Shown: one piece after another, positions 2,473 through 64,000 of the stretch
How the letters are laid out: each line of letters opens with the position of its first letter
Numbering within the stretch: the stretch's first letter is position 1
Program-made: the position numbers and the translations under genes
Source of the DNA: a virus
Taxonomy: Duplodnaviria > Caudoviricetes
DNA: 64,000 nucleotides
Virus record (IMG/VR): IMGVR_UViG_3300020047_005740
Span: 777-64,776 of that record
Strand: one strand, 5' to 3'
Notes under the pieces: generated by a model
Databases searched by the model: none
Told to the model about the DNA's origin: nothing
The model's input: only the letters and a program-made list of their open reading frames with translations

Positions 2473-2769
2473 ATGCGGAAACGGGAAGTGACATACAATC
2501 AGGACCAGGAGACAAGGGAGGCGAGCAATCCCTTACACGTACTGCTCGCTGCAACATTAGAAAGAGCTGTGAGGGATTTAACACACAGACATAGCGACAT
2601 ACGGAGGTCTACCGTATGGTGGTTTCTCCAGTGGAGGAATACCCCCGTTGATGAAACTGGTATATCATTCAAAGACATTGTTGACGTGCTTAATCTGGAA
2701 GATTTCCAGGTTCAGGCTTTAATGGTAAGAGTACGACATGCTGATTCTAAAACGGAAACCGAGCAGTAA
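2473..2769 (+). CDS. Hypothetical protein, possible regulator
   Basis: 98-aa ORF with LLAATLERAVRDL...WF...ISFKDIVDVLNL pattern. Confidence 0.55.
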   Translation: MRKREVTYNQDQETREASNPLHVLLAATLERAVRDLTHRHSDIRRSTVWWFLQWRNTPVDETGISFKDIVDVLNLEDFQVQALMVRVRHADSKTETEQ

Positions 2770-3127
2770 CGACGTTACTATCGGGGAGATATTCTACAAC
2801 GATACATTCATCTGTGCGACCTTCGAGCTACCCTGGCTTGATAACAAGGTAGAGGAGTCCTGTATACCCGTAGGCACGTATACACTTAAGCGTGTCCTAT
2901 CGAATCGTCTGCGACGCCAGGTATACACATTGACCAACGTACCTGGCAGGTCATCCATTCATATACACCCAGCGAATAAACTGGATGAGATTAAGGGATG
3001 CATTGCACCATTCATGGTGGCTGATAGGGTCAATGGAAAGTTCTTCGGTAAGCACAGTGGCAAAGCCTTAACTGTCCTTGAGCGTGTCATACGGGATAAC
3101 AAGATAGGTAGTATTACTATTCAGTAA
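2738..3127 (+). CDS. DUF5675-like protein (L,D-transpeptidase-like fold, candidate cell-wall enzyme)
   Basis: TIGE...ELPW...SCIPVGTY...VPGRSSIHIHPAN...GCI motifs. Confidence 0.75.
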   Translation: MLILKRKPSSNDVTIGEIFYNDTFICATFELPWLDNKVEESCIPVGTYTLKRVLSNRLRRQVYTLTNVPGRSSIHIHPANKLDEIKGCIAPFMVADRVNGKFFGKHSGKALTVLERVIRDNKIGSITIQ

Positions 3128-8674: not shown

Positions 8675-10750
8675 TTATTCATCTATAATCTTACTACTGC
8701 TTGAAGACATTGCTGGCGGATTAAAACCACCTATGTTTTTTGGTACCCACGGTAAAGAACCTGCATCATTTGGGGTCACTGGTTTCTCATATACACCATC
8801 TGATACCTCTATAATATTGTAATTTTGTAATGCACTGAGAAATGAGTCATCGCTTGCATTACCTCCGACTATGAACGGTATAGATGCCGCGATTACCTTA
8901 TCTGCATATTCTACGTTCTCTATCTTATTCTTGTCCGACTTATTACTAGCAGTCATAATGTACTGCTTAACATCATCCCAGGTCTTAGCGCCTGCTCGTA
9001 TAGCATGATCAATTGCTACATGTCCTCCGTTGTAGGCAGCGAGTACCATACGAGGGTCTGGTCTTATATCTATACCTCGGGTATCTTTAAACGTTGTAGC
9101 TATAGACTTGCTCACACGCTCATACTGCTTCATTAGAAAAATACCTGCTGCAGGTATAGCTATAGTAGGGTCGGCCAGTTCTTCAGGTGTAAGTCCAAGA
9201 TCAACCTTACCTGTATTAGGCATTATCTGCATAAGACCGACAGCACCTGCACCAGATACAGCACCTATCTTACCTCGGCTCTCTACGTAAGACATACCTT
9301 TGAGTATTGCAGGTGCATTACCCATAACAGGAATAGAGTTGATACGGTCAATGGATTCTTGGTCTAATGTAAAAGCACTTGGTGCTACATTAATGCTTAC
9401 GTTATTTGTACCCAGTAACTTAGACAGTTTCAGCATTGCTGTACCTATACTATCCACTTTAGGTGCGTCCGGTACATTCTGAGATATGCTTGGTGTATTC
9501 GGTGCAACGGGTACGCTCTGTGGTGTACTTATGTACGACGTTGCAGGAGCAGTCCTACGAGCAATCTGTGCTCCTGTCTTAAGCATTTCTTGGTAGCCAT
9601 TCGCGGTACCTCGCGATTGCATACGAGACAGTGTTGCACTATTCCTGTCCCTTGCCATGTTTATGATGGTCTTATTCTGACCAATACCAGTGTTGTTCTG
9701 CGGTACTCCTTCTGCTAGGCCAGCCCCTGTAGGTGTGTCATCTGGAGATGTCTGCTCTGGGTAACCGCTTACCTTAGCGTTGATACGCAGTGTGTTAAGA
9801 TATTTCTGATACTGTCTACCCTCTTCAGGGCTTAGGTTCCTCGCTATGACATTCTTACCGTCAGCAACAACATACGTTGCCTGACCGTCTGGAATTATTG
9901 TTGGTCTTACTATGTTTTTAAATGCGTCTGTTTCCAGTTCGTTTCCTATTACATTAACTGTATTGGAACTGTATATACGAAGTTTGCGAGGGTCTACATT
10001 ACCGCCTCTTGACGTTGCATATTCCTGGTATTCAGGCATACCATTTATAGCAACCTGAGCTTCTGACAACTCCTGCTCGTTCTTAAGTTTATATGCCTCT
10101 TCTTTCTTAGCCTTGTCTGCGTCCATCGCTGCATAACGCTTCTCCATCTCAACAGCACTGATGGATTGCTTCCAAGGATTAACGAGGTCAGGGTTTACTC
10201 CTTGTGCTTCGAGAGCAGCGATTGACCGCGCCCCAAAATCAGGATACCTCAACAACGTTCCGAGCACGTTGTTGTTTCTAAATATCGCTTCCTTGTTAGC
10301 AGGCAGAGGGTCTGACAGCGCAGTACTAACTGCAGACATATTCTCTATATCCTGTCTCTTCTGAGAGGACTCAGCAGCTCTGGCTTTAAGGTCTTCTAAT
10401 TTCTGAGACTTATAAATCTCTTCGTTGTCACGGATAATTTGTGCCTGAAGCTGTGCCTCCAGTGCAGCACTTTCTTTTAAAGTACCTTCAGCAACAGCCG
10501 CCTGCTCTTTCGCAGCACGTACTTCTGGGTCACTGTTAAATTCATTCTGTATCTGCTGTGCCTCTAACGCAGCGAGTCCAGACGCAACAGACGTTCCTGT
10601 TTGAATTGCATCTGTAACACCTTCTGCAACAGCCTGCCATGTCGTCTTCTGTGCGTTGCCCTGGCTAATACCAGCAGACGCTGCATTACTAAACAGGTTT
10701 ACATCTACTCTTGGTCCCTGCGGATTGAAACTACTATAGCTTTGTGGCAT
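8675..10750 (-). CDS. Internal virion protein with lytic transglycosylase (SLT) domain
   Basis: VESRG...GAVGLMQIMP...LAAYNGG...EYADKV SLT motifs in the C-terminal third. Confidence 0.85.
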   Translation of the reverse strand: MPQSYSSFNPQGPRVDVNLFSNAASAGISQGNAQKTTWQAVAEGVTDAIQTGTSVASGLAALEAQQIQNEFNSDPEVRAAKEQAAVAEGTLKESAALEAQLQAQIIRDNEEIYKSQKLEDLKARAAESSQKRQDIENMSAVSTALSDPLPANKEAIFRNNNVLGTLLRYPDFGARSIAALEAQGVNPDLVNPWKQSISAVEMEKRYAAMDADKAKKEEAYKLKNEQELSEAQVAINGMPEYQEYATSRGGNVDPRKLRIYSSNTVNVIGNELETDAFKNIVRPTIIPDGQATYVVADGKNVIARNLSPEEGRQYQKYLNTLRINAKVSGYPEQTSPDDTPTGAGLAEGVPQNNTGIGQNKTIINMARDRNSATLSRMQSRGTANGYQEMLKTGAQIARRTAPATSYISTPQSVPVAPNTPSISQNVPDAPKVDSIGTAMLKLSKLLGTNNVSINVAPSAFTLDQESIDRINSIPVMGNAPAILKGMSYVESRGKIGAVSGAGAVGLMQIMPNTGKVDLGLTPEELADPTIAIPAAGIFLMKQYERVSKSIATTFKDTRGIDIRPDPRMVLAAYNGGHVAIDHAIRAGAKTWDDVKQYIMTASNKSDKNKIENVEYADKVIAASIPFIVGGNASDDSFLSALQNYNIIEVSDGVYEKPVTPNDAGSLPWVPKNIGGFNPPAMSSSSSKIIDE

Positions 10751-42664: not shown

Positions 42665-42997
42665 ATGAAACAACTACTATTCCTTTCTTCAATTCTTTTG
42701 CTCTCCGGCTGTGGTGCAGTCATGACCACGGGAGATCATGCTTCCCTATCAGGCTCACCAGAAGGGATCAGGGCAATGCTTGACGGTATGAATGGTCTGG
42801 TCTCAACAGGCAAGGCATCACCTGACCGAACAACCGATTACGCAATCATGCGCGGAGAGCATGAGCGCGAACGAACGAAACGCGCCATGACTCCGGGTTT
42901 CTTACAAGGAATCTTCCAGCGTAACGGCGCATCCAATACCACTAATGTGGATATGTCAGCACCCCAAACCATCAGGGAAACTGACTTTATTAAGTAG
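42665..42997 (+). CDS. Predicted lipoprotein
   Basis: MKQLLFLSSILLLSG|C lipobox. Confidence 0.7.
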   Translation: MKQLLFLSSILLLSGCGAVMTTGDHASLSGSPEGIRAMLDGMNGLVSTGKASPDRTTDYAIMRGEHERERTKRAMTPGFLQGIFQRNGASNTTNVDMSAPQTIRETDFIK

Positions 42998-43039
42998 TAA
43001 TGCACTGCTGTAAAACAAACTGTAAACAAGGAAACCTAT

Positions 43040-43144
43040 ATGCATGAATTAGTTAAGTACTTCCTCTACGGATCATCTTTTTATTTCATTGTGTATGTAC
43101 TGAGTAACTTTCCAGCTATGTGGGTGTCACTAATATGCCAATAA
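43040..43144 (+). CDS. Small hydrophobic peptide
   Basis: 34-aa own translation, hydrophobic, AAGGA RBS. Confidence 0.35.
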   Translation: MHELVKYFLYGSSFYFIVYVLSNFPAMWVSLICQ

Positions 43145-43248
43145 TCATTGCTTTTATAATGGTGTTTGGCTTTGTGTTCGGGGTTATCGACAATTCAGAA
43201 GGAGTTAACACTTCTCCCAATTGCTCAATATTCACCGACTGTGACTAA
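43135..43248 (+). CDS. Small hydrophobic peptide
   Basis: MPIIIAFIMVFGFVFGVIDNSEGVNTSPNCSIFTDCD, own translation. Confidence 0.35.
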   Translation: MPIIIAFIMVFGFVFGVIDNSEGVNTSPNCSIFTDCD

Positions 43249-43270
43249 CTAAAAACATGGGACAAGGAGA

Positions 43271-43370
43271 TTCACCAGTGAAACCATTTGCTGACATCTC
43301 CTTGTCCCCTTCAGTTTCACCAGTGAAACCATTTGCTGACATCTCCTTGTCCCCTTCAGGTTCACCAGTG
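43271..43370 (+). repeat. 45-bp tandem duplication (2 copies plus partial)
   Basis: TTCACCAGTGAAACCATTTGCTGACATCTCCTTGTCCCCTTCAG(T/G) x2, then TTCACCAGTG. Confidence 0.9.
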
Positions 43371-43406
43371 GAACCGACTCTCACCACAGGTTCACCATTG
43401 AAAACA

Positions 43407-43934
43407 ATGAAACCACTAAAATCACTCCTATCCCTCCTAATTCTAGCCTCTACAAGCCACGCCAAGCCCCTCGAATTGATTACCCCTAGGCTTACCTATC
43501 AACAGAGATTGGACCACGCTATAAAGTATCATGCCGCCAAGGAGGAAGTGAAAGAGAGCTTTATCAGAGCTTGGGTAATGCGTGAATCGTCGGGGCTCGA
43601 CAACGCTACGAGATATGAACCTCACGTAGCAAAGCAACGGGAAACCATCGACCGATACTTAACACCTTCACAGCGCAGTGCTATGGCCTCGTCACACGGT
43701 CCGTTACAGGTTATGGGATACAACGCCAAAGCTTGCGGCCTACGTATAGCAGACCTATACGACCCTTATAAAGGGATAGGCTGTGGTATCTACCATCTCA
43801 AGGCTTGGATGAGGCTACATCCTAGGGATGGTGAGCGACTGCTCAAAGGTCTAGCGAACTATAACGGCGGGTATAAGGGGCATACATCCGACCGACCCCT
43901 ATCCTATGCCAAGCAAATCTATACCCATTACTAA
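43407..43934 (+). CDS. Lytic transglycosylase (SLT-like) with Sec signal peptide
   Basis: MKPLKSLLSLLILASTSHA signal; RESSG, SHGPLQVMG and NYNGG motifs. The longer ORF-track start only adds the tandem repeat. Confidence 0.75.
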   Translation: MKPLKSLLSLLILASTSHAKPLELITPRLTYQQRLDHAIKYHAAKEEVKESFIRAWVMRESSGLDNATRYEPHVAKQRETIDRYLTPSQRSAMASSHGPLQVMGYNAKACGLRIADLYDPYKGIGCGIYHLKAWMRLHPRDGERLLKGLANYNGGYKGHTSDRPLSYAKQIYTHY

Positions 43935-53292: not shown

Positions 53293-53567
53293 ACTTTGAA
53301 CTTTGCGATTGTTGTCAGAAGAAGTTTTACGGCGCGGATTTGGAGAAAGCAGAACTAATAAACGCATTAAAGATGATGGTCGAGTACTTTGAAACCGAAC
53401 TTGGCTGGGCACATTTTCGGGCAGAGTTTATGACTCGTGGAGATGTTGAGTATGAGAAATCATCTCTTAGGAATGCCGCAATAATCACAAAGGCGCTTGA
53501 ATCATTCAAATCGTCTTGGCCTGAGATTGCGGCATATTTAGATAAAGTTAAGCCGATAACGTTATGA
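53289..53567 (+). CDS. Hypothetical protein
   Basis: Coupled ORF. Confidence 0.55.
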   Translation: MNFELCDCCQKKFYGADLEKAELINALKMMVEYFETELGWAHFRAEFMTRGDVEYEKSSLRNAAIITKALESFKSSWPEIAAYLDKVKPITL

Positions 53568-54307
53568 AAAAACTCCTCCTCGCCTTACTGCTTTCCGCTT
53601 GCGGCTCCGACAATGCCACCGATGGTGGCAGAAAGGTAGTGTCGCTGGACTTACTCGGCATCATGCACGAGGATTTTCCGTGTCAAAAATATTTATTGGA
53701 GATGGAAGATGCAGACGAAATCAATATCGGATACCTCGCTGGGGGAACATTTGGCGAGTCCAGGGATTGTCTCGATAAAATCAGCAGAGACCCTCGCACA
53801 AGAGCTATCAGAATTCATGTATGCTCAGGCCCGTGCGTTTCAAATGATAGGTGTCACCCTACAGAGTGTCTCTATGACCTCGGCTGGAACGATAAGGATG
53901 ACATTCACAGAAGGTTATCGAGATTCGCAGAGAGAGAGTTTGGTAACTTGGACGCCTCACGAGCCTATCTAGTTTCACCGATCCTCGAACACCAACTCGA
54001 CCGAGCAACCTTCGACAGAGCAGCCGCAATGCTCACCCGACTCGCAGCAGAATACGGACTGCAAATTGAAATAATTGATAACCCACTTTACCCCCGCGAG
54101 TCTCCGTATTTGCTCGAAATTCATAACGAGTTCGACACTGTGCAGATGCCGTACCTGTACTCGACTGACGGCTATATGTTCGACCCGCGAGTGTTGCTAT
54201 CGCTGAATCAAGAGGCGCTTGTTGCTTTTGAATGGCGGCCAGAGATGAATGGCTTGTGTGTTGACGGATCTCCGTGGGTTAGTCCGTTGGAGAGGAGGTG
54301 CTGGTGA
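53564..54307 (+). CDS. Predicted lipoprotein with possible (beta/alpha)-barrel domain
   Basis: MKKLLLALLLSA|C lipobox. Confidence 0.7.
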   Translation: MKKLLLALLLSACGSDNATDGGRKVVSLDLLGIMHEDFPCQKYLLEMEDADEINIGYLAGGTFGESRDCLDKISRDPRTRAIRIHVCSGPCVSNDRCHPTECLYDLGWNDKDDIHRRLSRFAEREFGNLDASRAYLVSPILEHQLDRATFDRAAAMLTRLAAEYGLQIEIIDNPLYPRESPYLLEIHNEFDTVQMPYLYSTDGYMFDPRVLLSLNQEALVAFEWRPEMNGLCVDGSPWVSPLERRCW

Positions 54308-54852: not shown

Positions 54853-55098
54853 GTGAGAAATGAAGTTGTCGCATGGATCGCGGTGAACAATGGGACCAAG
54901 CAACCTATGCAGGGATTTATATTTTTCGATCATCGATACGGAATGGGGGTAGAGAGTGGTCGAGATGCGGCATACAGAGCATTGAGGGATTACCTTAATA
55001 CAGGAGCTACGGAACACAAGATTAAGGAGTGTTTCGGTTTGGTATTGGAACAGGTAACAGTGGTTTTTGATGACGAGGAGCAGCAGAGAGATGAGTGA
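54853..55098 (+). CDS. Hypothetical protein
   Basis: Ends EEQQRDE. Confidence 0.55.
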   Translation: MRNEVVAWIAVNNGTKQPMQGFIFFDHRYGMGVESGRDAAYRALRDYLNTGATEHKIKECFGLVLEQVTVVFDDEEQQRDE

Positions 55099-55321
55099 GG
55101 AGAGGAAGACGGAAGAGGTGGAGGGGTTTGTTTGCTGGAGTCCTGATCATGGATTCATCCCCGTAAACGATGAAGGCGATATCGCAATAGTTACTGATGC
55201 TGAGCGATGCGAAGAGTCTTTCATGGCACACCCAAATAGCTCGCGGGGCAAGACGCAACGAAGACACGGCTGGCGCATCCGCCCCTGCAAAATAGTTTTT
55301 ACGGATGAGGGTGAGAGATGA
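55091..55321 (+). CDS. Hypothetical protein
   Basis: Coupled ORF. Confidence 0.55.
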   Translation: MSEERKTEEVEGFVCWSPDHGFIPVNDEGDIAIVTDAERCEESFMAHPNSSRGKTQRRHGWRIRPCKIVFTDEGER

Positions 55322-55608
55322 GTGAAAAGAAACACGAAACATTGTCAGAGTCGTTTAATGTAGCGCTCAATCAGCCGCCTTATCGTGAACTCCCCTGGCG
55401 CAGCCCGGAAGAGAGGCCGGAGAACATGAGCATTGTAATTTGTCGTGGCAGTAAGGACGCGCATTTTCCCGTCCTGCATGCCTTATGTGTGCACGACGTA
55501 GACGGGGATTGGTGGGCAAGGACAGACAAATATGTTTTTCATCCCCTAGAGCTATCCGCATGGATGTACTCCGACGAACTCCCATTACCTGATTGGGTGC
55601 AGAGATGA
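55318..55608 (+). CDS. DUF551-like small phage protein
   Basis: WRSPEERP...W...AWM...LP pattern. Confidence 0.5.
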   Translation: MSEKKHETLSESFNVALNQPPYRELPWRSPEERPENMSIVICRGSKDAHFPVLHALCVHDVDGDWWARTDKYVFHPLELSAWMYSDELPLPDWVQR

Positions 55609-55787
55609 TTAACACATCAGCGTTTGAAAGTTTGGAAAGGTATCAGCGATTAGAGGCCGCGATGCTTAAGGTCAAAGATCCTCTACATCCTTACCACTGG
55701 ATACACGAGTTTTTGGTCCAGGCTGTGTTACGAGAGGTTAATTATATGAGGTGTAATAAAGAAGAGTGGTTGGATAGATTGAGGTGA
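55605..55787 (+). CDS. Hypothetical protein
   Basis: Coupled ORF. Confidence 0.5.
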   Translation: MINTSAFESLERYQRLEAAMLKVKDPLHPYHWIHEFLVQAVLREVNYMRCNKEEWLDRLR

Positions 55788-55791
55788 AGAG

Positions 55792-56358
55792 ATGAGTAAA
55801 GACTGTATACGTCATCATGGTCAACACATTGAATCATATCTGTACGGGTGTCCGACCTGTGGTGCTCCGGTATGCTGTAAGAAATGCTGCGAAGAAGTAA
55901 ATGCTCATTGGAATGTATCAGAGCTTAAGAAACAAGTAGATTGCGGGGCGGTAGTTGGCGAAACGTGGACAGGCACAGACGAGCAGATAGATAGGAATAT
56001 TCGTGCTAATTCTGGTGTTGATTGGAAAGACTCGAACACAGTAAGCGAGGAAGAGAACATGATCTACTTACCACCATTAGACATATCAGCCCCAGTACCT
56101 GAAGGGATGAAGGAAGCAGTGAGATTCTTTGAGGCACCGGACCTAAAAGAGAAACGTATTGAGATGATATTATCGGACGCCTTTGGTGCGCCGTTTGACG
56201 ACACTGACCAACGAATGGCCGATGCTAAGTGGGGAGCATTAGCATGTATTCGTATAGACCGAGAGAGAATCTGGAATAACCTATATGCACAGCCGTACAA
56301 TGATACTCCTGTAGGTGCTGAACGTGCTCGTAAGGTTATTTTCGAGGAGGAAGAATGA
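55792..56358 (+). CDS. Hypothetical protein with N-terminal Cys cluster
   Basis: CPTCGAPVCCKKCC. Confidence 0.55.
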   Translation: MSKDCIRHHGQHIESYLYGCPTCGAPVCCKKCCEEVNAHWNVSELKKQVDCGAVVGETWTGTDEQIDRNIRANSGVDWKDSNTVSEEENMIYLPPLDISAPVPEGMKEAVRFFEAPDLKEKRIEMILSDAFGAPFDDTDQRMADAKWGALACIRIDRERIWNNLYAQPYNDTPVGAERARKVIFEEEE

Positions 56359-56579
56359 CCCAACAGTATGACCCAAGAAAAGCAAAACCATTCTATATAA
56401 TTATTAACCGCGATGACGAGATAGTGGGTGTTGCCAATACAAAAGAACAGGCAATGATTATGGCTACAAAGTTTATTTCTGACTATCTAGCTCCAGACGA
56501 TTATGAGGAAATGTTATGGAGAGAATGGGAGAAGCTGGAAGCACATGGTTGGAAGATAGAGAAGAGAGAGGTGGTATGA
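56355..56579 (+). CDS. Hypothetical protein
   Basis: Coupled ORF. Confidence 0.55.
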   Translation: MTQQYDPRKAKPFYIIINRDDEIVGVANTKEQAMIMATKFISDYLAPDDYEEMLWREWEKLEAHGWKIEKREVV

Positions 56580-56776
56580 CACAGCGAGATGACGAGTTAG
56601 GACGCTTAGTAGAAAAGTCAGAGGAATCAGACCTGATTAATAATATACTGTTAAAATTACAACAGTGTAGGGACCAGACTACTAGAGAAGCTAGGCTGTC
56701 TCAACATGAGTGTTTCTATCTTCTCAAATACATAAATGAACTTACTGTTTATATGCTCAAGGAGGTGGGGTTTTAA
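56576..56776 (+). CDS. Hypothetical protein
   Basis: Coupled ORF. Confidence 0.5.
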   Translation: MTQRDDELGRLVEKSEESDLINNILLKLQQCRDQTTREARLSQHECFYLLKYINELTVYMLKEVGF

Positions 56777-57945
56777 TGACACACGCAAAGTACGGCTCAC
56801 CCTCATCACTCTACAGGTCTGCAGCATGTCCAGGTTGGGTAGAGTACACGAAAGACCTGCCTGACGGAGCACCGTCAATACACGCAGAAGAAGGAACCGC
56901 TTTCCATGAAGTGATGGAGATCATGTTTCAGCAGCGTGTCTCAAACTGGATTGATGATAGTAATACGTGTGTGGATATATACAGAAGCTATCCTGAGATG
57001 CGTAATACGGTAAACGATACGCTATTTGAGGTGGTGAATAGATGGGATAAGTTCCGCTCGATGCACTACAATGCGCGTTACCATGTAGAGCTTCGCGTAC
57101 ATCTTACCCAAGACATCTTTGGCACTGCAGACCTTGTATTCGTAGGCGAGGATAAGAAGACAGGTCAAACAAATATCGTTGTAATAGATTATAAGCATGG
57201 GCTTGGCGTACATGTGCAGGCACAGAACAACCTGCAGGGTCTTGCCTACCTACTCGGTGCGATAGAGACACTGCAGCTTAAGAACATAGGACGTACGATA
57301 TTCATCATCGCACAGGTACGCCTTGAAGACGGGTGGAGTCTCGCTGAATACGACAAGGAAGAGCTTGACAATTACAGAGAGAAGATACTATCTATAGTGG
57401 ACAAGGTGAAGGCTGTTTGTAATGGGGAGATTCCCCTTGAAAACAATCTTCACCCTGGGAGTCATTGCAGATGGTGTAAGGCAGACGGACTATGTGTGGC
57501 TCAGAAGAGAGAAACCTTTGACATGGTAGAAAGTACAGCTATGGAACTTCCAATTGAAGCACGAATTAAACATCTGACGCTCGACCAGCAGGTAGCTATA
57601 TTCCTGCGTAAGACACAGATTGAGGACTTCCTAAACGCAGTCGCTATGAATGTACAGCGCACCTTAGAGAGTGGTGTCACTCATCCAGATGTAAAGATTG
57701 TAGAGACGAACGGCAGGCGTGGGTGGAAGGACAGCGTTACACCAGAAGACCTGAAAGAGCTTGGTGTATCGGACCCAACCACAGTAAAGATATCCCTTAA
57801 GGGAATCGGCGAGGTGGAGAAGGCTGTCGGTAAAGGGAAGATTGACCATCTTGTAGTTGTAGGTGGGAAGAAGCGAGAAGTAGTACATGTGAGTGATAAG
57901 CGGTCAGCCGTGATAGGGCTCGCTCCAGCAGAATTACCAGAGTAG
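56776..57945 (+). CDS. Cas4-like PD-(D/E)XK exonuclease (DUF2800-like)
   Basis: HAKYGSPS...CPG, AEEGTAFH, FGTAD, VIDYKHG, NLQ..AY, GSHCRWCK. Confidence 0.85.
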   Translation: MTHAKYGSPSSLYRSAACPGWVEYTKDLPDGAPSIHAEEGTAFHEVMEIMFQQRVSNWIDDSNTCVDIYRSYPEMRNTVNDTLFEVVNRWDKFRSMHYNARYHVELRVHLTQDIFGTADLVFVGEDKKTGQTNIVVIDYKHGLGVHVQAQNNLQGLAYLLGAIETLQLKNIGRTIFIIAQVRLEDGWSLAEYDKEELDNYREKILSIVDKVKAVCNGEIPLENNLHPGSHCRWCKADGLCVAQKRETFDMVESTAMELPIEARIKHLTLDQQVAIFLRKTQIEDFLNAVAMNVQRTLESGVTHPDVKIVETNGRRGWKDSVTPEDLKELGVSDPTTVKISLKGIGEVEKAVGKGKIDHLVVVGGKKREVVHVSDKRSAVIGLAPAELPE

Positions 57946-58010
57946 GTAAGAGAATCTACCCAGTAAGCCCAGTTGGGTAGGTATATTAAACGGGCGTATT
58001 AGGAAAGCAT

Positions 58011-58622
58011 ATGGCAGCAGCGAAAGACAAACCACGTAAGCAGTTATGGACTCCAGCAGGACGGATTAGTTTCCCGTTCATTGCAATGCCTGACACTGGA
58101 CGTGAATACAGCGACAATAAATATAAGACCGACCTTCTTATCAGGAAGGAAGCGTTTAAGGAGCACGGTAAGGCATTGACCGATGCAGTCATTGAGGTAG
58201 GTAAGGCTTACTTCGGTGACAAGTTTACGCTTAAGGGGAAGTGGAAGACTCCCTTTAAAGATACGGATACTGATGACAAGGTTGTTAACGAGGCGATGAA
58301 GAACTGCATCCTCGTTAGAGCGAAGGCTTCTAAGCAACCTCTCATCATCGGACCACGTAAGAATAGCGACGGAAAGTTTCCAGAACTCTCACCTGAAGAG
58401 GTTCAAGCTCTGAAGGGTGGAGACTGGTGTGTTCTCAATGTTACGGTATTCCCATACGACCAGTCTGGTGGCGGTATCGCTCTAGGGTTGAACGTAGTTC
58501 AATTCTGGAAGACAGACACGGGCTTCGGACAGGGACGTTCTAAGGTACTCGACAGCGCGGAAGAGCTGGATAGTCCCCTGGATACCCCAACGGCTCCTGT
58601 AGACAATGATTCAATTGTCTAG
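58011..58622 (+). CDS. Single-stranded DNA-binding protein (DUF2815-like)
   Basis: GRISFP...KY...LLI...GIALGLNVVQFWK, acidic tail; located between exonuclease and polymerase. Confidence 0.85.
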   Translation: MAAAKDKPRKQLWTPAGRISFPFIAMPDTGREYSDNKYKTDLLIRKEAFKEHGKALTDAVIEVGKAYFGDKFTLKGKWKTPFKDTDTDDKVVNEAMKNCILVRAKASKQPLIIGPRKNSDGKFPELSPEEVQALKGGDWCVLNVTVFPYDQSGGGIALGLNVVQFWKTDTGFGQGRSKVLDSAEELDSPLDTPTAPVDNDSIV

Positions 58623-58682
58623 CACCTCAACCTAACGGAGGGTATCCGTGACGGCGGGGAAAGACCCGCGCTAAAGACAGCA

Positions 58683-60557
58683 ATGAGAACATTCAAGAAC
58701 CGATTTCACGAGTGGGACTTTAAGACCATATACATCACCGATGATACGGAAGCAGCCGAGATAGTGGGTAAGCTCGCTGCAGATACGAAGACCCTGTATG
58801 GGCTGGACATCGAGACAGGTAAGATTGGAGAGTACGAGCAGTCAGGTCTCTGCCCTCATATAAGTAGGATTAGACTGGTGCAAGTCTATGCACCGCAGCA
58901 CAACATCAGCTACGTATTCGACGTATATAAAGTAAGATTAGAGGTTCTTGCACCAATGTGCAGAGCCTGTCGGTTCGTAGCCCATAACGGGATATTCGAG
59001 ATTAAGCACCTAACACACGCAGGCTACCCTGACATGAACATCGGATGCTCGATGCTCATATCACAGCTCATCGTTGGAGCAGAGCACTCACCCTATGAGA
59101 AGGACGAGGATGATGACGATGAGGATAAGACGGGTCTATCCCAGTACACTCGGTTCGGGCACAGCCTTGACTACGTAGTGCAGCGTCTGTTTGGAGTGAA
59201 GGTGGATAAGGCGTTCCAGACAAGTAACTGGGACGCAGAGGAGTTAGTAGTTGACCAGATAACCTACGCTGGACTGGATGCGATACTGACCTACAAGATA
59301 GCCACAGCCATGTCTCCAAAGATAGCTGAGTATAAGATGGTTAAAGTATACCAGCTCCTTAAGGACATGCAGCACGTAGTTGCTCACATGGAACTGGTGG
59401 GGTTGCCAGTCGATTGGGAGTACCATGCGAACCTTATCAAGGGGTGGGAGAGTAAGAGCAGGGAAGCGTTCGATAGATGTACCCCATTCTTTGGTAACGT
59501 TAACATGCGCTCTGGTAAGCAGATGAACGAGTGGCTCATCGGTTACCTTAAGGATAAGCCGGAGCTACTAGAGGAGTGGCCAAAGACTGACAAGGGAGCA
59601 TACACGTTTACAAAGACGGCAATCGCAGCGTACAAGGAATTGCCTGCCATAGGCGCACTACTTGAATACAAGAAGTATGCCAAGCTCATTGATACCTACG
59701 GTCAATCGCTCATCGAGAAGAAGCACCCTATCACAGGGAGACTTCACACATCATACACACTAGGGGAAACACGCACGGGAAGATTATCCAGCAGGAATCC
59801 CAATTGCCAGAATTACCCGAGGGATAAAGAGTTCAGGGATATGTTCATCGCGCAACCAGGTCACGTAATTGTAGTGAGTGACTTCAGCCAGATTGAACTG
59901 CGCCTGCAGTCTGAGTTTAGCAAAGACCCACAGATGCGTAAGGTGTACAAGGAGAAGCAGGATATTTATAAGACGATGGCTTCCGTCGTGTATGGTCTAC
60001 CGACTGATAAGATAGATAAGGCGAAACGATTCGTAGGTAAAACTATCATGCTCGCATTAGGTTACGGAATGGGGGCAAAAAAGCTTAACCATTACGCCGT
60101 TAATGCAGGAGTTCATCAGCAGCAGGAATTCTGGGACGCTGCATGGAAGACCTATCACAATACGTTCACCACCTATTCACAGTGGTGTGACTCCGTACGA
60201 AGACGTGCAAAGGGACTAGGCTACATAGACACCCTGCTTGGTAAGCGAAGGAAACTCAGTCAGGATGAGATGTATACCCGTGCTCCAAACACAGTTATCC
60301 AAGGCTCTGCCGCAGAGTTGATGATGACTGCGATGCTACTTTGCTACGCAAAGGTGCGGTCGTATGGTCAGCTTGTTGCAACGGTCCACGATGAAATTCT
60401 CCTGCATGTACCAGAAGATAGAGCAGAGGAAGCAACTGAACACTTGGCATCAGCAATGAATGATGCTATGAAACAGATGTTCCCCAACGCAGCGAGTCAC
60501 GAGGTGGCAGACGCTGCAGCAGGTAAGCGGTGGGGAGAAGTAAAGGCTGAATTATGA
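58683..60557 (+). CDS. polA: DNA polymerase family A with 3'-5' exonuclease
   Basis: GLDIET, AHNGIFE, YAGLDA; motif A SDFSQIELR, motif B KTIMLALGYG, motif C TVHDEI. Confidence 0.95.
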   Translation: MRTFKNRFHEWDFKTIYITDDTEAAEIVGKLAADTKTLYGLDIETGKIGEYEQSGLCPHISRIRLVQVYAPQHNISYVFDVYKVRLEVLAPMCRACRFVAHNGIFEIKHLTHAGYPDMNIGCSMLISQLIVGAEHSPYEKDEDDDDEDKTGLSQYTRFGHSLDYVVQRLFGVKVDKAFQTSNWDAEELVVDQITYAGLDAILTYKIATAMSPKIAEYKMVKVYQLLKDMQHVVAHMELVGLPVDWEYHANLIKGWESKSREAFDRCTPFFGNVNMRSGKQMNEWLIGYLKDKPELLEEWPKTDKGAYTFTKTAIAAYKELPAIGALLEYKKYAKLIDTYGQSLIEKKHPITGRLHTSYTLGETRTGRLSSRNPNCQNYPRDKEFRDMFIAQPGHVIVVSDFSQIELRLQSEFSKDPQMRKVYKEKQDIYKTMASVVYGLPTDKIDKAKRFVGKTIMLALGYGMGAKKLNHYAVNAGVHQQQEFWDAAWKTYHNTFTTYSQWCDSVRRRAKGLGYIDTLLGKRRKLSQDEMYTRAPNTVIQGSAAELMMTAMLLCYAKVRSYGQLVATVHDEILLHVPEDRAEEATEHLASAMNDAMKQMFPNAASHEVADAAAGKRWGEVKAEL

Positions 60558-60787
60558 CGAACCCAACACTACCAGAGCTTATTGACCAAGCAAAAGAATT
60601 GTTTGGAAAGATTCCAGAGGACCAGCAGGAGGCAAAGGAGTGTGTACACCTACTGATAACAGTGGTGAACACCTACGCTCAGATGCATGTCGACATGCAG
60701 AAAGAGTTCGTAAAGATGAAGAACATCATCGATACGCAGAACGAGACGCTGAAGAAGAAGTTTAAGAAGGGACGTATAATCGTATGA
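60554..60787 (+). CDS. Hypothetical coiled-coil protein
   Basis: Coupled ORF. Confidence 0.55.
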   Translation: MTNPTLPELIDQAKELFGKIPEDQQEAKECVHLLITVVNTYAQMHVDMQKEFVKMKNIIDTQNETLKKKFKKGRIIV

Positions 60788-61161
60788 CACTAAAGGGAAT
60801 GTATAATACTGAGTATGAGAGAGCAGAGGGACGTGCGCTATACGTACTCGCTAAGAAAGAGTACGGGTCTATTAATATGATGGCATCAGCCTTTCATGTT
60901 TCTCGTCAGTTAATCCAGCAATTTATCACGAAGAAGGTTCCTGTAACGTATGCGAGTTACTTAGGCCGAAGACATAATTTCTCGCCTGGTATACTAGCCT
61001 ATAGGGATTATGTATTGGGAACACTGGACACTGTGGATTACAAGAAATTGTTCAGTGAACAGAACTACTACGACAGAAATGATATAGAGTACATTCTCGA
61101 AGGGGAGTATGTTGTATCTGCATCTCAATATCTAAAAGCGTGTGACAAAGAGCTGCTATGA
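60784..61161 (+). CDS. Hypothetical protein, possible Cro-like HTH
   Basis: YGSINMMASAFHVSRQLIQQF. Confidence 0.5.
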   Translation: MTLKGMYNTEYERAEGRALYVLAKKEYGSINMMASAFHVSRQLIQQFITKKVPVTYASYLGRRHNFSPGILAYRDYVLGTLDTVDYKKLFSEQNYYDRNDIEYILEGEYVVSASQYLKACDKELL

Positions 61162-62024
61162 AACGCCTGTTAGCCCTTGCTGTTATTATGACAGGATGTA
61201 CGACGGGTACATGGCAGTTACAGGAGAACAATGACTTCTTCAAACCCATCGGAAACAACGACGAGAAGTACACACAGGGGCTCAGGCTGTCCAACATCCG
61301 AGAGGATGATACAGGGTCACACGTATATTACTTTGGACAATCAATATATACCCCCAGCGATAAGCAGACCGAAGACTATCTACCTAACCAGCGACCGTAC
61401 TCAGGTTACCTATACGCGGGTTACGATGCTCGATATGTGCGAAGTCCGAATGTACAGGACACGCTAGGGGTAAACGTTGGAATGGTCGGTCCTGCTTCTC
61501 TCGCAGGGCAAGCACAGAACACCGTACACAGACTCATCGGACAGAAGACTGCTAAGGGATGGGACAACCAGATTCACAATGAGCCTGGTGTAATCCTTAA
61601 GGCAGAGAGGAAGTACTACGAACCAATCACATCGTGGATGGATTCAACAACAAGTATCGGAGGAGATATAGGAAATGTTTTCACACAAGCATACACCACT
61701 TTCGGCATACGCCTGGGCCATAATCTTGCACCTTTCTTTGATTCTGCTTCTCCTGTTTTTCCTCGTATACGGAAGCAGGGAACATCGGTGTACTTATTCT
61801 GTGAGGGAGTTGAGCGAGCCGTTGGGAGAAACATCTTTCTTGATGGAAACACCTTTAGAAAGTCTGCCTCTATAGATAAGAAGACGTTCGTACTTGAAGG
61901 AAGACTTGGCATCGCGGTCGAGTTTGATGGGTATGCTGTACGGTACACATACATCGCACAGTCGGAAGAATTTAAAGGCGAGGGTGCCGGAGCTGATTTT
62001 GGGGAGGTGAGTATATCATGGTGA
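61158..62024 (+). CDS. lpxR: LpxR-family lipid A 3-O-deacylase (DUF2219-like outer-membrane beta-barrel)
   Basis: ENNDFF, DEKYTQG, GQSIYTP, RPYSGYLY, GMVGPASLAG.AQNTVH, GWDNQI.NEPG, GRNIFLDGN; C-terminal aromatic (ISW); N-terminal signal. Confidence 0.85.
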   Translation: MKRLLALAVIMTGCTTGTWQLQENNDFFKPIGNNDEKYTQGLRLSNIREDDTGSHVYYFGQSIYTPSDKQTEDYLPNQRPYSGYLYAGYDARYVRSPNVQDTLGVNVGMVGPASLAGQAQNTVHRLIGQKTAKGWDNQIHNEPGVILKAERKYYEPITSWMDSTTSIGGDIGNVFTQAYTTFGIRLGHNLAPFFDSASPVFPRIRKQGTSVYLFCEGVERAVGRNIFLDGNTFRKSASIDKKTFVLEGRLGIAVEFDGYAVRYTYIAQSEEFKGEGAGADFGEVSISW

Positions 62025-62683
62025 AGCATTCTTATGGTCTAGGTAGAAGAATCCAGTTCGATGATCGAAGCTGGGATTATCCAATCAGAGCACTGATTGG
62101 TAAAGTAAAACCTCGTTCATACACTTGGACATGCGACAGTTGGCTTAATCAAGGGCAAGAGGGCGCTTGCGTAGGCTTTGCCTTAGCACATGAACTTATT
62201 GCAAAACCGAAAGTGTTTACCAAGATACAAGAAATAGATGCACTTAGTATTTATAAGAAGGCACAAGATTTGGACCCCTGGAGTGGAAACAACTACTCCG
62301 GCACTAGTCTCCTCGCGGGGATTCAGGCACTACAAACCCTATATCCGTCAGCACTTAAAGAGTACCGATGGGCATTTGGTTTACAGGATATGACGGATAC
62401 CATCGGTAATTATGGGCCTGTGGTAATCGCGGTCAACTGGTATGAGGGATTCTATACACCGGATGACCAAGGATACATACACCGTACAGGCAAACGAGTA
62501 GGTGGTCATGCTATTCTGGCAAATGGTATAAACATTAAAAAGAAACACATCCGTTTACATAACAGCTGGGGACGCTCGTGGGGCATTAATGGGGAATGCT
62601 TCATCTCTTTCGACGATATGGAAAGGCTTCTCAATGAGAAGGGTGAGGTATGTGTGCCTGTTAAGAGGGGGCGCGAATGGTAG
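62018..62683 (+). CDS. Papain-like cysteine peptidase (C1A)
   Basis: NQGQEGACVGFA (Q, C), GGHAI (H), HNSWGRSWG (N). Confidence 0.9.
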   Translation: MVKHSYGLGRRIQFDDRSWDYPIRALIGKVKPRSYTWTCDSWLNQGQEGACVGFALAHELIAKPKVFTKIQEIDALSIYKKAQDLDPWSGNNYSGTSLLAGIQALQTLYPSALKEYRWAFGLQDMTDTIGNYGPVVIAVNWYEGFYTPDDQGYIHRTGKRVGGHAILANGINIKKKHIRLHNSWGRSWGINGECFISFDDMERLLNEKGEVCVPVKRGREW

Positions 62684-63228
62684 ACGTAGATAAGCTCTGG
62701 GATAACGGACTCAATGGATGGTCTTGGCAGATTAAGAGTGAGTTCACTGACCTTCTAAAACTCATGCAGAAGAGAGAGATAGGTTCTGTCATCGAGATAG
62801 GTTGTTACGACGGAGGCACTGCAGCAGGATTCCTCGCACTCGGATGCAGTGTAGTCAGTGTGGATATTGCAAAGAGACCTCGCGTATCAGAGCTTGAAAC
62901 CACTTATAGCAACTATCATTTCTTTAAGGGGACGAGTGAGGAGTATGTATCAGCATTGCAGTCTGGCACCGAAAAGTCTCACCGCTTTGATATGGCGTTT
63001 ATTGATGGCGACCATACATATGATTGGGCACTTCGGGATTATAGAGCTGTGCGCCCTCTTATACCTGATGGGGGTCTTATTGTGTTCCACGATATTGTAG
63101 ACAGTCCACATCACAGGAAGAATAACTGTGAGGTGTATAAGCTCTGGCAAGAGTTGAAAGTAAGGGGTATTACGATGGAGTTTTGTGCAGGAGATATTTG
63201 GGGCGGTATCGGAGTCTATCTCAGATGA
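62677..63228 (+). CDS. Class I SAM-dependent methyltransferase (Methyltransf_24-like)
   Basis: IEIGCYDGGT and FIDGDHTY...DGGLIVFHDI. Confidence 0.85.
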   Translation: MVDVDKLWDNGLNGWSWQIKSEFTDLLKLMQKREIGSVIEIGCYDGGTAAGFLALGCSVVSVDIAKRPRVSELETTYSNYHFFKGTSEEYVSALQSGTEKSHRFDMAFIDGDHTYDWALRDYRAVRPLIPDGGLIVFHDIVDSPHHRKNNCEVYKLWQELKVRGITMEFCAGDIWGGIGVYLR

Positions 63229-64000
63229 GACATTGGTTAGCTGTCTGCACAATCGTACGTAATGAAGCTCGGTACATGAAGGAGTGGATAGAGAACCACC
63301 TTCTTGAAGGTGTCACCATGTTCTTCATCTACGACAATGGTTCGACCGATAACTTACGCGAGATACTGAAGCCTTTCAACTACTGTACCTACCTTATAGA
63401 CTGGCCATTACATCCAGGGCAGAAGGCAGCCTATGCCGACTGTATACAGAGATTCTCCAATACCTGCGAGTGGCTCGCTTTCATAGATGCTGACGAGTTC
63501 TTATACTGTAGGGATAAACGAACGGTCGCTACTGTTTTGAATGAGTTCCACTATGCGAGCGCAATCGCTGTACACTGGCTCCTGTTTGGCAGCAATGGAG
63601 AGATTGAAGCTGACGGTAAGACAGACGACGGGGAAGACATTCCTGTAGTATGCAGATTTATCAGACGAGCCAAGGACGTAAACCCTCACGTAAAGAGTAT
63701 CGTTCGTACATCGTGCCTCAATGGTGTTGGGTATGACGTACACTGCTTCGACGTTATCGGTGATATCGTAGACGAGAAACACCTACACCTACCGAAGCAT
63801 TACTCATTAGACTACAACGGTACGGCAGATGTGCTGGCGATTAATCACTATCATACTAAGTCGAAGGAAGAATATAAACAGAAGTGTCTACGGGGTAGAG
63901 CAGATACAGGCGAAGTGCGTGACTTTGAATCCAGTTTTGCGGCTCACGACGTGAATGAGGTTAAGGATACTGTGCTTAGAAGGAAGAGACATGAGTATTA
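63225..64000 (+). CDS. Glycosyltransferase GT92/GT2_4-like (runs to window edge)
   Basis: Own translation, not in ORF track: LAVCTIVRNEARYMKEWIENH...IYDNGSTD...WLAFIDADEFL...INHYHTKSKEEY; at least 258 aa. Confidence 0.85.
   Translation, partial: MRHWLAVCTIVRNEARYMKEWIENHLLEGVTMFFIYDNGSTDNLREILKPFNYCTYLIDWPLHPGQKAAYADCIQRFSNTCEWLAFIDADEFLYCRDKRTVATVLNEFHYASAIAVHWLLFGSNGEIEADGKTDDGEDIPVVCRFIRRAKDVNPHVKSIVRTSCLNGVGYDVHCFDVIGDIVDEKHLHLPKHYSLDYNGTADVLAINHYHTKSKEEYKQKCLRGRADTGEVRDFESSFAAHDVNEVKDTVLRRKRHEY

Follow-up and report, generated by a model that had tools for sequence, protein, structure and literature searches.

A predicted LpxR-type lipid A deacylase with a lipoprotein signal, encoded beside a papain-like peptidase by an uncultured and apparently virulent phage

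The gene described here lies in a window of 64,000 nucleotides (bases 777-64776) of a 64,776-bp IMG/VR record from an uncultured phage with an apparently virulent lifestyle. We propose, with a probability of roughly three in four, that its product is a Ca2+-dependent lipid A 3'-O-deacylase of the outer membrane, probably lipid-anchored, that is made during infection. Phages with a lipid-anchored LpxR would then probably remodel the outer membrane of their host in the course of infection. Lipid A editing enzymes serve bacteria in immune evasion and envelope adaptation, and on phages they are found as conversion genes of temperate coliphages. Both phage-borne LpxR and bacterial lipoprotein-type LpxR are already known; what is new is a conserved, peptidase-linked subfamily of lipoprotein-type LpxR in uncultured phages that look virulent. 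Literature searches turned up no publication describing a lipid A deacylase in a lytic phage. If the enzyme is active, lytic phages would rewrite host LPS from within during infection, which would bear on the breach of the outer membrane by phages without recognisable spanins, on the exclusion of other phages by infected cells and on how infection alters LPS and the shedding of vesicles in natural communities. Research on outer-membrane biogenesis would likewise gain a natural case of a beta-barrel enzyme that is routed as a lipoprotein.

An earlier note on this DNA had assigned the open reading frame to the LpxR/DUF2219 type and proposed a profile search, and this search supports the assignment. 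Pfam LpxR (PF09982, DUF2219) matched the predicted precursor with an E-value of 7.8e-68 and 229.2 bits (gathering cut-off 26), and the alignment covers nearly the full profile (positions 19-321 of 323). A six-frame search of the genome with the same profile yielded 227 bits. By sequence, HMMER also retrieved Salmonella Typhimurium LpxR (3FID, E 4.7e-14), which we take to be the sole solved LpxR structure. The protein further matches PHROG 2309, a family without assigned function (E 3e-13), and an NCBIfam scan gave no match. The predicted mature protein comprises 275 residues without a transmembrane helix and ends in SISW. The last residue is aromatic in 18 of 23 relatives, and the BAM-type aromatic C-terminus described in the earlier note is also supported.

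Table 1 Positions of the predicted LpxR gene, its signal and active-site residues, and surrounding genes within the window
Feature	Position	Strand	Basis or remark
Predicted LpxR-family lipid A deacylase gene	61158..62024	+	288-aa precursor, ATG start; PF09982, 3FID, AF2 model
Predicted type II signal peptide MKRLLALAVIMTG, lipobox Cys14 (codon 61197-61199)	61158..61199	+	conserved Cys
N25-D26, equivalents of N9-D10 (putatively Ca2+-binding)	61230..61235	+	codons verified
T39, equivalent of T34	61272..61274	+	alignment
K69, equivalent of K67 (putatively substrate-binding)	61362..61364	+	alignment
Q120-x3-H124, equivalents of Q118 and catalytic H122	61515..61529	+	loop-3 helix
125-aa gene, function not assigned	60784..61161	+	stop overlaps LpxR start (ATGA)
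Papain-family (C1) cysteine peptidase, 221 aa	62018..62683	+	start overlaps LpxR stop
SAM methyltransferase (Methyltransf_24)	62677..63228	+	neighbour gene
GT92/GT2 glycosyltransferase, 272 aa	63183..64000	+	stop codon just beyond the window's last base
Candidate lysis cluster	42665..43934	+	110-aa lipoprotein, 42-aa membrane protein, 225-aa SLT transglycosylase (context only)

An AlphaFold2 model was built from an alignment of 84 sequences, consisting of 23 members of the clade described below and 61 cellular homologues. It reached a mean pLDDT of 92 and a pTM of 0.87 and displays 12 strands together with a helix at residues 116-126. The best match of this model was 3FID, both in Foldseek (E 3e-22, TM 0.82) and in VIA-align (Z 29.5 and rmsd 2.1 Å over 259 residues, compared with Z 17.6 for the next-best barrel), and model residues 17-288 correspond to residues 1-294 of the 3FID chain. 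The barrel model proposed as a check in the earlier note hence shows the 12-stranded barrel and the loop-3 alpha-helix of the family, with model helix 116-126 corresponding to the L3 helix 110-126 of 3FID. Together, profile and fold matches support the identity of the product as an LpxR-family enzyme well. The phage protein and Salmonella LpxR share the Pfam family, the 12-stranded barrel with its loop-3 helix and the aromatic C-terminus at an identity of about 22%. They differ in that the Salmonella protein is longer, is encoded on the chromosome rather than on an apparently virulent phage, and bears a type I instead of a type II (lipoprotein) signal.

The numbering of 3FID was taken from the HMMER alignment, and the roles of the residues from a simulation study on Salmonella LpxR (bioRxiv 10.1101/309096). 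There, N9, D10 and T34 are the Ca2+ ligands, H122 activates the water and K67 contacts Kdo or phosphate in the simulations. Equivalents of N9, D10, T34, K67, Q118 and H122 are all present in the phage protein: the Ca2+/oxyanion residues align with N25, D26 and T39, the substrate contact with K69, and the pair on the L3 helix with Q120 and H124, both of which are placed in model helix 116-126. The codons of these residues, and that of K130 discussed below, were verified. The N-D, T and Q-x3-H set that the earlier note had recognised as catalytic is therefore confirmed by the alignment to 3FID. No substitution of N25, Q120 or H124 occurs in any of the 84 aligned sequences, and D26 is found in 23/23 clade members and in 60 of the 61 cellular homologues. 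The T39 position is occupied by Thr (17/23) or Ser (6/23) in the clade and by Thr in 59/61 cellular homologues, and K69 is Lys in every one of the 23 clade members. That these residues are kept while identity within the clade is 41-68% points to a subfamily under selection. From the alignment and the matching secondary-structure elements, we infer an active-site geometry like that of 3FID.

Two positions of the Salmonella enzyme are not kept. E128 is replaced by K130, in agreement with the Glu-to-Lys exchange six residues after the His described in the earlier note, and D11 is replaced by Phe. A hydrophobic residue mostly occupies the D11 position; at the E128 position, Glu occurs in 3 of the 61 cellular homologues, and the position varies within the phage clade as well. 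As Glu is rare and variable here, the residue does not define the family, and K130 does not disqualify the phage protein. E128 has been proposed to orient H122; in the simulations, it was only a hypothetical partner of this His, and a stable E128-H122 bond was absent (10.1101/309096). The loss of E128 and D11, together with an identity of about 22-25% to the characterised enzymes, might nevertheless suggest that the barrel is no lipid A deacylase in its host and instead acts on another outer-membrane lipid or has a structural or porin-like role. We consider this improbable, as strict conservation of K69, of the His and of the Ca2+ ligands extends through the clade, and the fold match is specific for LpxR and far above that to other 12-stranded barrels. 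Presence of the gene does not equal activity, however, as Salmonella LpxR is latent in vivo; the low activity of the Salmonella enzyme is also discussed in 10.1101/309096. By homology to Salmonella LpxR, N25, D26 and T39 would coordinate Ca2+, which in turn would polarise the ester; the His of the loop-3 helix, H124, would activate the water and K69 would touch Kdo or phosphate, so that the 3'-acyloxyacyl unit would be removed from lipid A of the outer leaflet.

The N-terminus has the layout of a lipoprotein signal, MKR-LLALAVIM-TG-C, with a basic n-region, a hydrophobic h-region and a lipobox (consensus [LVI][ASTVI][GAS]C ending the signal). The lipobox-like MKRLLALAVIMTG followed by Cys, which the earlier note had pointed out, proved to be a shared feature: 23/23 close relatives keep the Cys, whereas such a Cys close to N-D is missing from all 69 LpxRs that come from named bacterial genomes or MAGs. 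Within the clade, the Cys is preceded by [LIFM]-x-[GS] and lies 7-11 residues ahead of the invariant N-D; position +2 is occupied by T, S, A, V or L and never by Asp. A loose lipobox pattern matched all 23 clade members. A strict PROSITE-like pattern written for this analysis matched 15/23 clade members versus 4/61 cellular homologues, the misses in the clade being due to very short signals. Lipidation and LspA cleavage at Cys14 are thus probable, as judged from these sequence features. Cys14 precedes the counterpart of the N-terminus of mature Salmonella LpxR by three residues, and its predicted place at the rim of strand 1 that faces the periplasm would be topologically sensible for an anchor in the inner leaflet. 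The same phage encodes further canonical lipoproteins at 42665-42997 and 53564-54307, with the lipoboxes LLSGC and LLSAC.

These features would be compatible with the following route. The 13-residue type II signal peptide would direct the precursor through Sec, upon which host Lgt, LspA and Lnt would lipidate Cys14 and cleave the signal. With no Asp at +2, the Lol system would sort the protein to the outer membrane, where BAM would insert the 12-stranded barrel via the C-terminal signal ending in Trp, leaving the lipid anchor of Cys14 to rest at the periplasmic rim. The o-spanin Rz1, Llp of T5 and Bor of lambda are phage lipoproteins that are likewise sorted to the host outer membrane, with roles in lysis or exclusion. 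These proteins are small and non-enzymatic, whereas the phage LpxR would be a full enzymatic beta-barrel with a lipobox.

A word-indexed search identified 22 close relatives, which are 284-311 aa long and encoded on contigs no longer than 65 kb; beyond these, identity falls to 35-40%, the level of cellular LpxRs of 320-370 aa. In an IQ-TREE analysis of 100 sequences, the 23 formed one clade (SH-aLRT 95) without a specific bacterial sister, and among bacterial species-representative genomes the best LpxR copy was at most 39% identical, with matches mostly in MAGs of Alphaproteobacteria and Desulfobacterota. Phylogeny, proposed in the earlier note as a way to the donor or host, accordingly identified neither. 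Ten relatives had informative flanks, and all ten are located in phage replication modules with genes for a DUF2800 nuclease, an Enc34-type SSB, a family A polymerase, a D5 primase, an SNF2 helicase and giant virion proteins on the reverse strand. Divergence of LpxR is about that of PolA within the same contigs, which argues for a long residence in phages rather than a recent capture. The phage itself is strongly diverged: most structural proteins gave no PHROG match, megablast found no match to bases 58000-64000 among deposited phages, and in tblastn PolA was at most about 27% identical to that of cultured phages, so that no host can be transferred from cultured relatives. No tRNA genes were found in the record, and no integrase among the ORFs scanned, which were a part of the total.

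On a broader scale, 1.84 billion representatives were searched with a profile, which yielded 6,460 LpxR-family clusters, and at least 36 of the best 150 of these (50%-identity representatives) carry a lipobox. A tree of 95 rows placed 52 of the 55 sequences with a lipobox in one subtree, and the lipobox state required 4 changes versus 28.5 with shuffled labels. This subtree, which includes the phage sequences, also holds four bacterial lipoprotein-type LpxRs (P0155, P0171, P0205 and P0246), in which the lipobox Cys precedes E-N-D by about 11-13 residues. They comprise 330-350 aa with an Arg/Ala-rich N-terminus, whereas the phage form is shorter. The longer lipobox sequences with such N-termini form a separate branch inside the lipobox subtree, and their composition suggests a high G+C content. 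P0205 is flanked by cellular genes (MgtE, deoxyhypusine synthase-like and dienelactone hydrolase); P0171 and P0227, both on short contigs, were left out of the reading of contexts. By this sampling, lipoprotein-type LpxR is a coherent subfamily that includes bacteria, with most of the sampled diversity phage-borne.

As 69% of the members of the nearest ESM Atlas cluster are labelled Bacteria, one might suspect that the LpxR gene is bacterial DNA that was mis-assembled or mis-binned into the viral record. However, the record carries an exact 121-bp repeat at both ends, by which it closes on itself, and its completeness is rated 100%. Phage genes overlap LpxR on both sides, the synteny is kept across independent assemblies, and no copy from a bacterial species representative exceeds 39% identity. 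We therefore regard this explanation as effectively refuted.

LpxR is part of a same-strand block with replication genes. It is separated from the DNA polymerase by two small genes (77 and 125 aa), so that the earlier note's placement of LpxR directly behind the polymerase needs correction. Homologues of the 125-aa gene occur upstream of LpxR in the contigs L002, L003, L098 and L099. Start and stop of LpxR overlap the flanking genes, to which it may be translationally coupled. A promoter and terminator scan of 55000-64000 revealed neither enrichment nor a terminator on the plus strand and hence does not define the timing of expression.

The downstream gene encodes a putative papain-like peptidase, as indicated by Pfam Peptidase_C1 (22.6 bits), phrog_16701 (E 1.8e-62), cathepsin B-like PDB matches (E 1e-6) and the motifs Q/C/H/N-S-W read from the translation. 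The peptidase has no signal peptide. It accompanies LpxR in 7/8 contexts, even where the position relative to PolA differs: in some contigs, the pair precedes both the nuclease and the polymerase gene instead of following the polymerase. While a scan of IMG/VR with the single PolA sequence found no relative, an alignment-based scan found one, L095, whose PolA is 58% identical. L095 possesses neither LpxR nor the peptidase, and its 125-aa gene is directly followed by GT92. LpxR and the peptidase hence behave as an accessory two-gene module that is dispensable in this relative.

Such a module might work as a unit, in which the peptidase would remove a host sensor or repair factor for damage of the outer membrane or LPS while LpxR edits lipid A. 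The overlap of the LpxR stop with the peptidase start, the frequent association and the joint absence from L095 are in line with this idea. On the other hand, none of seven peptidase homologues has a signal peptide, which predicts different compartments for the two proteins; L005 has LpxR and no peptidase within its 7.6 kb, no C1 peptidase homologue was found near LpxR in the other viral lineages, and the linkage could be hitch-hiking. A functional unit of this kind appears rather unlikely to us. A methyltransferase gene is found near LpxR also in L002, L005 and L099. An 'envelope-glycan operon' tying the glycosyltransferase and methyltransferase genes to LpxR was considered and rejected, since these genes persist in L095, which lacks LpxR.

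With regard to lysis, PHROG and Pfam searches of 10 candidate ORFs revealed no holin, endolysin or spanin family. In the candidate lysis cluster, the SLT transglycosylase (43257-43934) contains an internal segment that resembles a signal, and the only other lytic domain found, also of the SLT type, resides in an internal virion protein (8675-10750). Spanins pair a small lipoprotein of the outer membrane with, or fuse it to, a coiled-coil partner in the inner membrane, and their genes belong to the lysis cassette. LpxR is not a spanin, being a 275-residue barrel without a TM helix and without an adjoining i-spanin-like gene, 18 kb away from the SLT cluster; it could still act in disruption of the outer membrane. 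A relevant precedent is PagL, a lipid A 3-O-deacylase that is, like LpxR, an outer-membrane barrel deacylating lipid A. PagL belongs to an unrelated family with an 8-stranded barrel and a Ser-His-Glu triad, acts at position 3 and not 3', and was not among the sequence or fold matches of the phage LpxR. Because PagL, by deacylating lipid A, drives vesiculation in Salmonella (PMC4958258), and because no recognisable spanin is present, we tentatively favour a role in loosening and vesiculation of the outer membrane that aids release. Under-acylated LPS would lead to a looser, vesiculating outer membrane and thereby ease the last step of lysis. Several points speak against this role, which the earlier note had proposed as a substitute for spanins: the cluster resembling a lysis cassette, with its SLT and lipoprotein genes, is 18 kb away, and the dispensability of LpxR in L095 argues against an essential function in lysis. 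Furthermore, constitutive activity of LpxR is compatible with viability in bacteria. An even bolder proposal, which we would advance with considerable reserve, is that lipoprotein-type LpxR, possibly with the linked peptidase, constitutes an enzymatic device for outer-membrane disruption that thins the LPS leaflet. If so, the outer membrane would fail once the peptidoglycan is cut, and phages without a recognisable spanin would have a third route, beside spanins and disruptins, for the last step of Gram-negative lysis.

The main rival to loosening of the outer membrane is nearly as likely and likewise tentative. Here, LpxR would block superinfection or re-adsorption, as other phages or the phage's own progeny would adsorb or eject less well on cells, debris and vesicles with deacylated LPS. 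By analogy, the lipoprotein Llp of T5 masks FhuA. An accessory, moron-like gene that most relatives have, and not all, would suit such a role, as would its place within a non-structural block with replication genes and the glycosyltransferase and methyltransferase genes nearby. The independent capture of LpxR by several phage lineages, temperate ones included, is also consistent with exclusion. However, LPS receptors of phages are mostly O-antigen or core sugars rather than acyl chains, and the glycosyltransferase genes are kept in L095 and are therefore not tied to LpxR.

The earlier note had considered a lipid A-editing enzyme behind DNA polymerase unexpected, which turned out to be overstated in view of PHROG 2309, an annotated LpxR in Escherichia phage 434, E. 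coli prophages in which lpxR adjoins antiterminator Q (PMC13192938), and LpxR-like genes of several lineages on at least eight further IMG/VR contigs. PMC9263587, citing Ogawa 2018, places EHEC lpxR under the control of Ler. The LpxRs of phage 434 and of lambdoid EHEC/EPEC prophages are, like the protein described here, phage-borne outer-membrane barrels of the LpxR family. Yet they are 25% identical to it, belong to the enterobacterial type with a type I signal, represent Ler/Pch-regulated lysogenic-conversion genes of temperate phages and have no adjoining C1 peptidase. In the tree, LpxR of phage 434 is the outgroup and sits by itself on a long branch, at a clear distance from the 23-member clade. 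Three of the other IMG/VR contigs with LpxR-like genes have an in-frame TAG where the homologues have Gln.

A cytoplasmic peptidase of the papain family (C1) accompanied the predicted lipid A deacylase LpxR in seven of the eight LpxR contexts. Neither gene was present in L095, the relative without LpxR. The C1 peptidase and LpxR are gained and lost jointly across the phage group.

Features discussed in this part, with their positions (window coordinates unless indicated)
Feature	Position	Strand	Details
DUF5675 protein	2738-3127		Pfam 97 bits; phrog_1501
Giant protein, 1851 aa	3117-8672	minus	adjoins 691-aa virion protein
Virion protein, 691 aa	8675-10750	minus	SLT/endolysin-type domain; phrog_669, phrog_342
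Candidate lysis cluster	42665-43934		three ORFs
Exported protein, 58 aa	52642-52818		N-terminal TMD, which ends in VSAC
Exported lipoprotein, 247 aa	53564-54307		lipobox LLSAC
Papain-family (C1) peptidase	62018-62683		cytoplasmic; also in L002, L003, L096-L099
Family A polymerase of L002, 966 aa	L002 2456-5356
Cys-rich ORF, 279 aa	genome 76-915		window up to 139

The candidate lysis cluster has three members: a lipoprotein of 110 aa whose lipobox reads LLSGC, a protein of 42 aa with a single TMD, and an SLT transglycosylase of 225 aa. The N-terminus of the SLT ORF carries a proline/serine-rich peptide twice, followed by an internal Met and a signal-like segment (MKPLKSLLSLLILASTSHA); this Met may be the true start of the enzyme. 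Together with the exported 247-aa lipoprotein and the 58-aa protein whose TMD ends in VSAC, the number of lipoproteins predicted to be encoded by the phage comes to at least three, possibly four.

By analogy, the 691-aa virion protein and the adjoining giant protein, for which no family match was found, are a putative T7-like internal ejection protein set; the remaining structural module around them was unrecognisable. The DUF5675 gene immediately precedes that of the giant virion protein, an arrangement kept in both the LpxR-bearing relative L002 and L095. The DUF5675 protein, for which no PDB sequence match was found, displays an H-x(n)-G-C-I motif, spotted by eye. As this motif is reminiscent of enzymes with the YkuD L,D-transpeptidase fold, the protein could act on peptidoglycan.

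LpxR-like genes with in-frame TAG codons occurred in three further IMG/VR contigs: L010 (at 6187, 6802 and 6862), L011 (6148, 6172, 6355 and 6838) and L012 (six sites). Homologues have Gln at these positions, and the sequences are consistent with TAG-recoded phages bearing LpxR.

The polymerase of L002 aligned with the 624-aa window enzyme in two blocks. An insertion of about 330 aa in the L002 protein separates them and may represent an intein or have come from a homing endonuclease. Finally, the Cys-rich ORF, flanked by the two glycosyltransferase genes, runs across the terminal repeat of the record. It contains repeated W-x-x-M-x-x-R-C motifs and may encode a homing-endonuclease-like or AP2-like DNA-binding protein.
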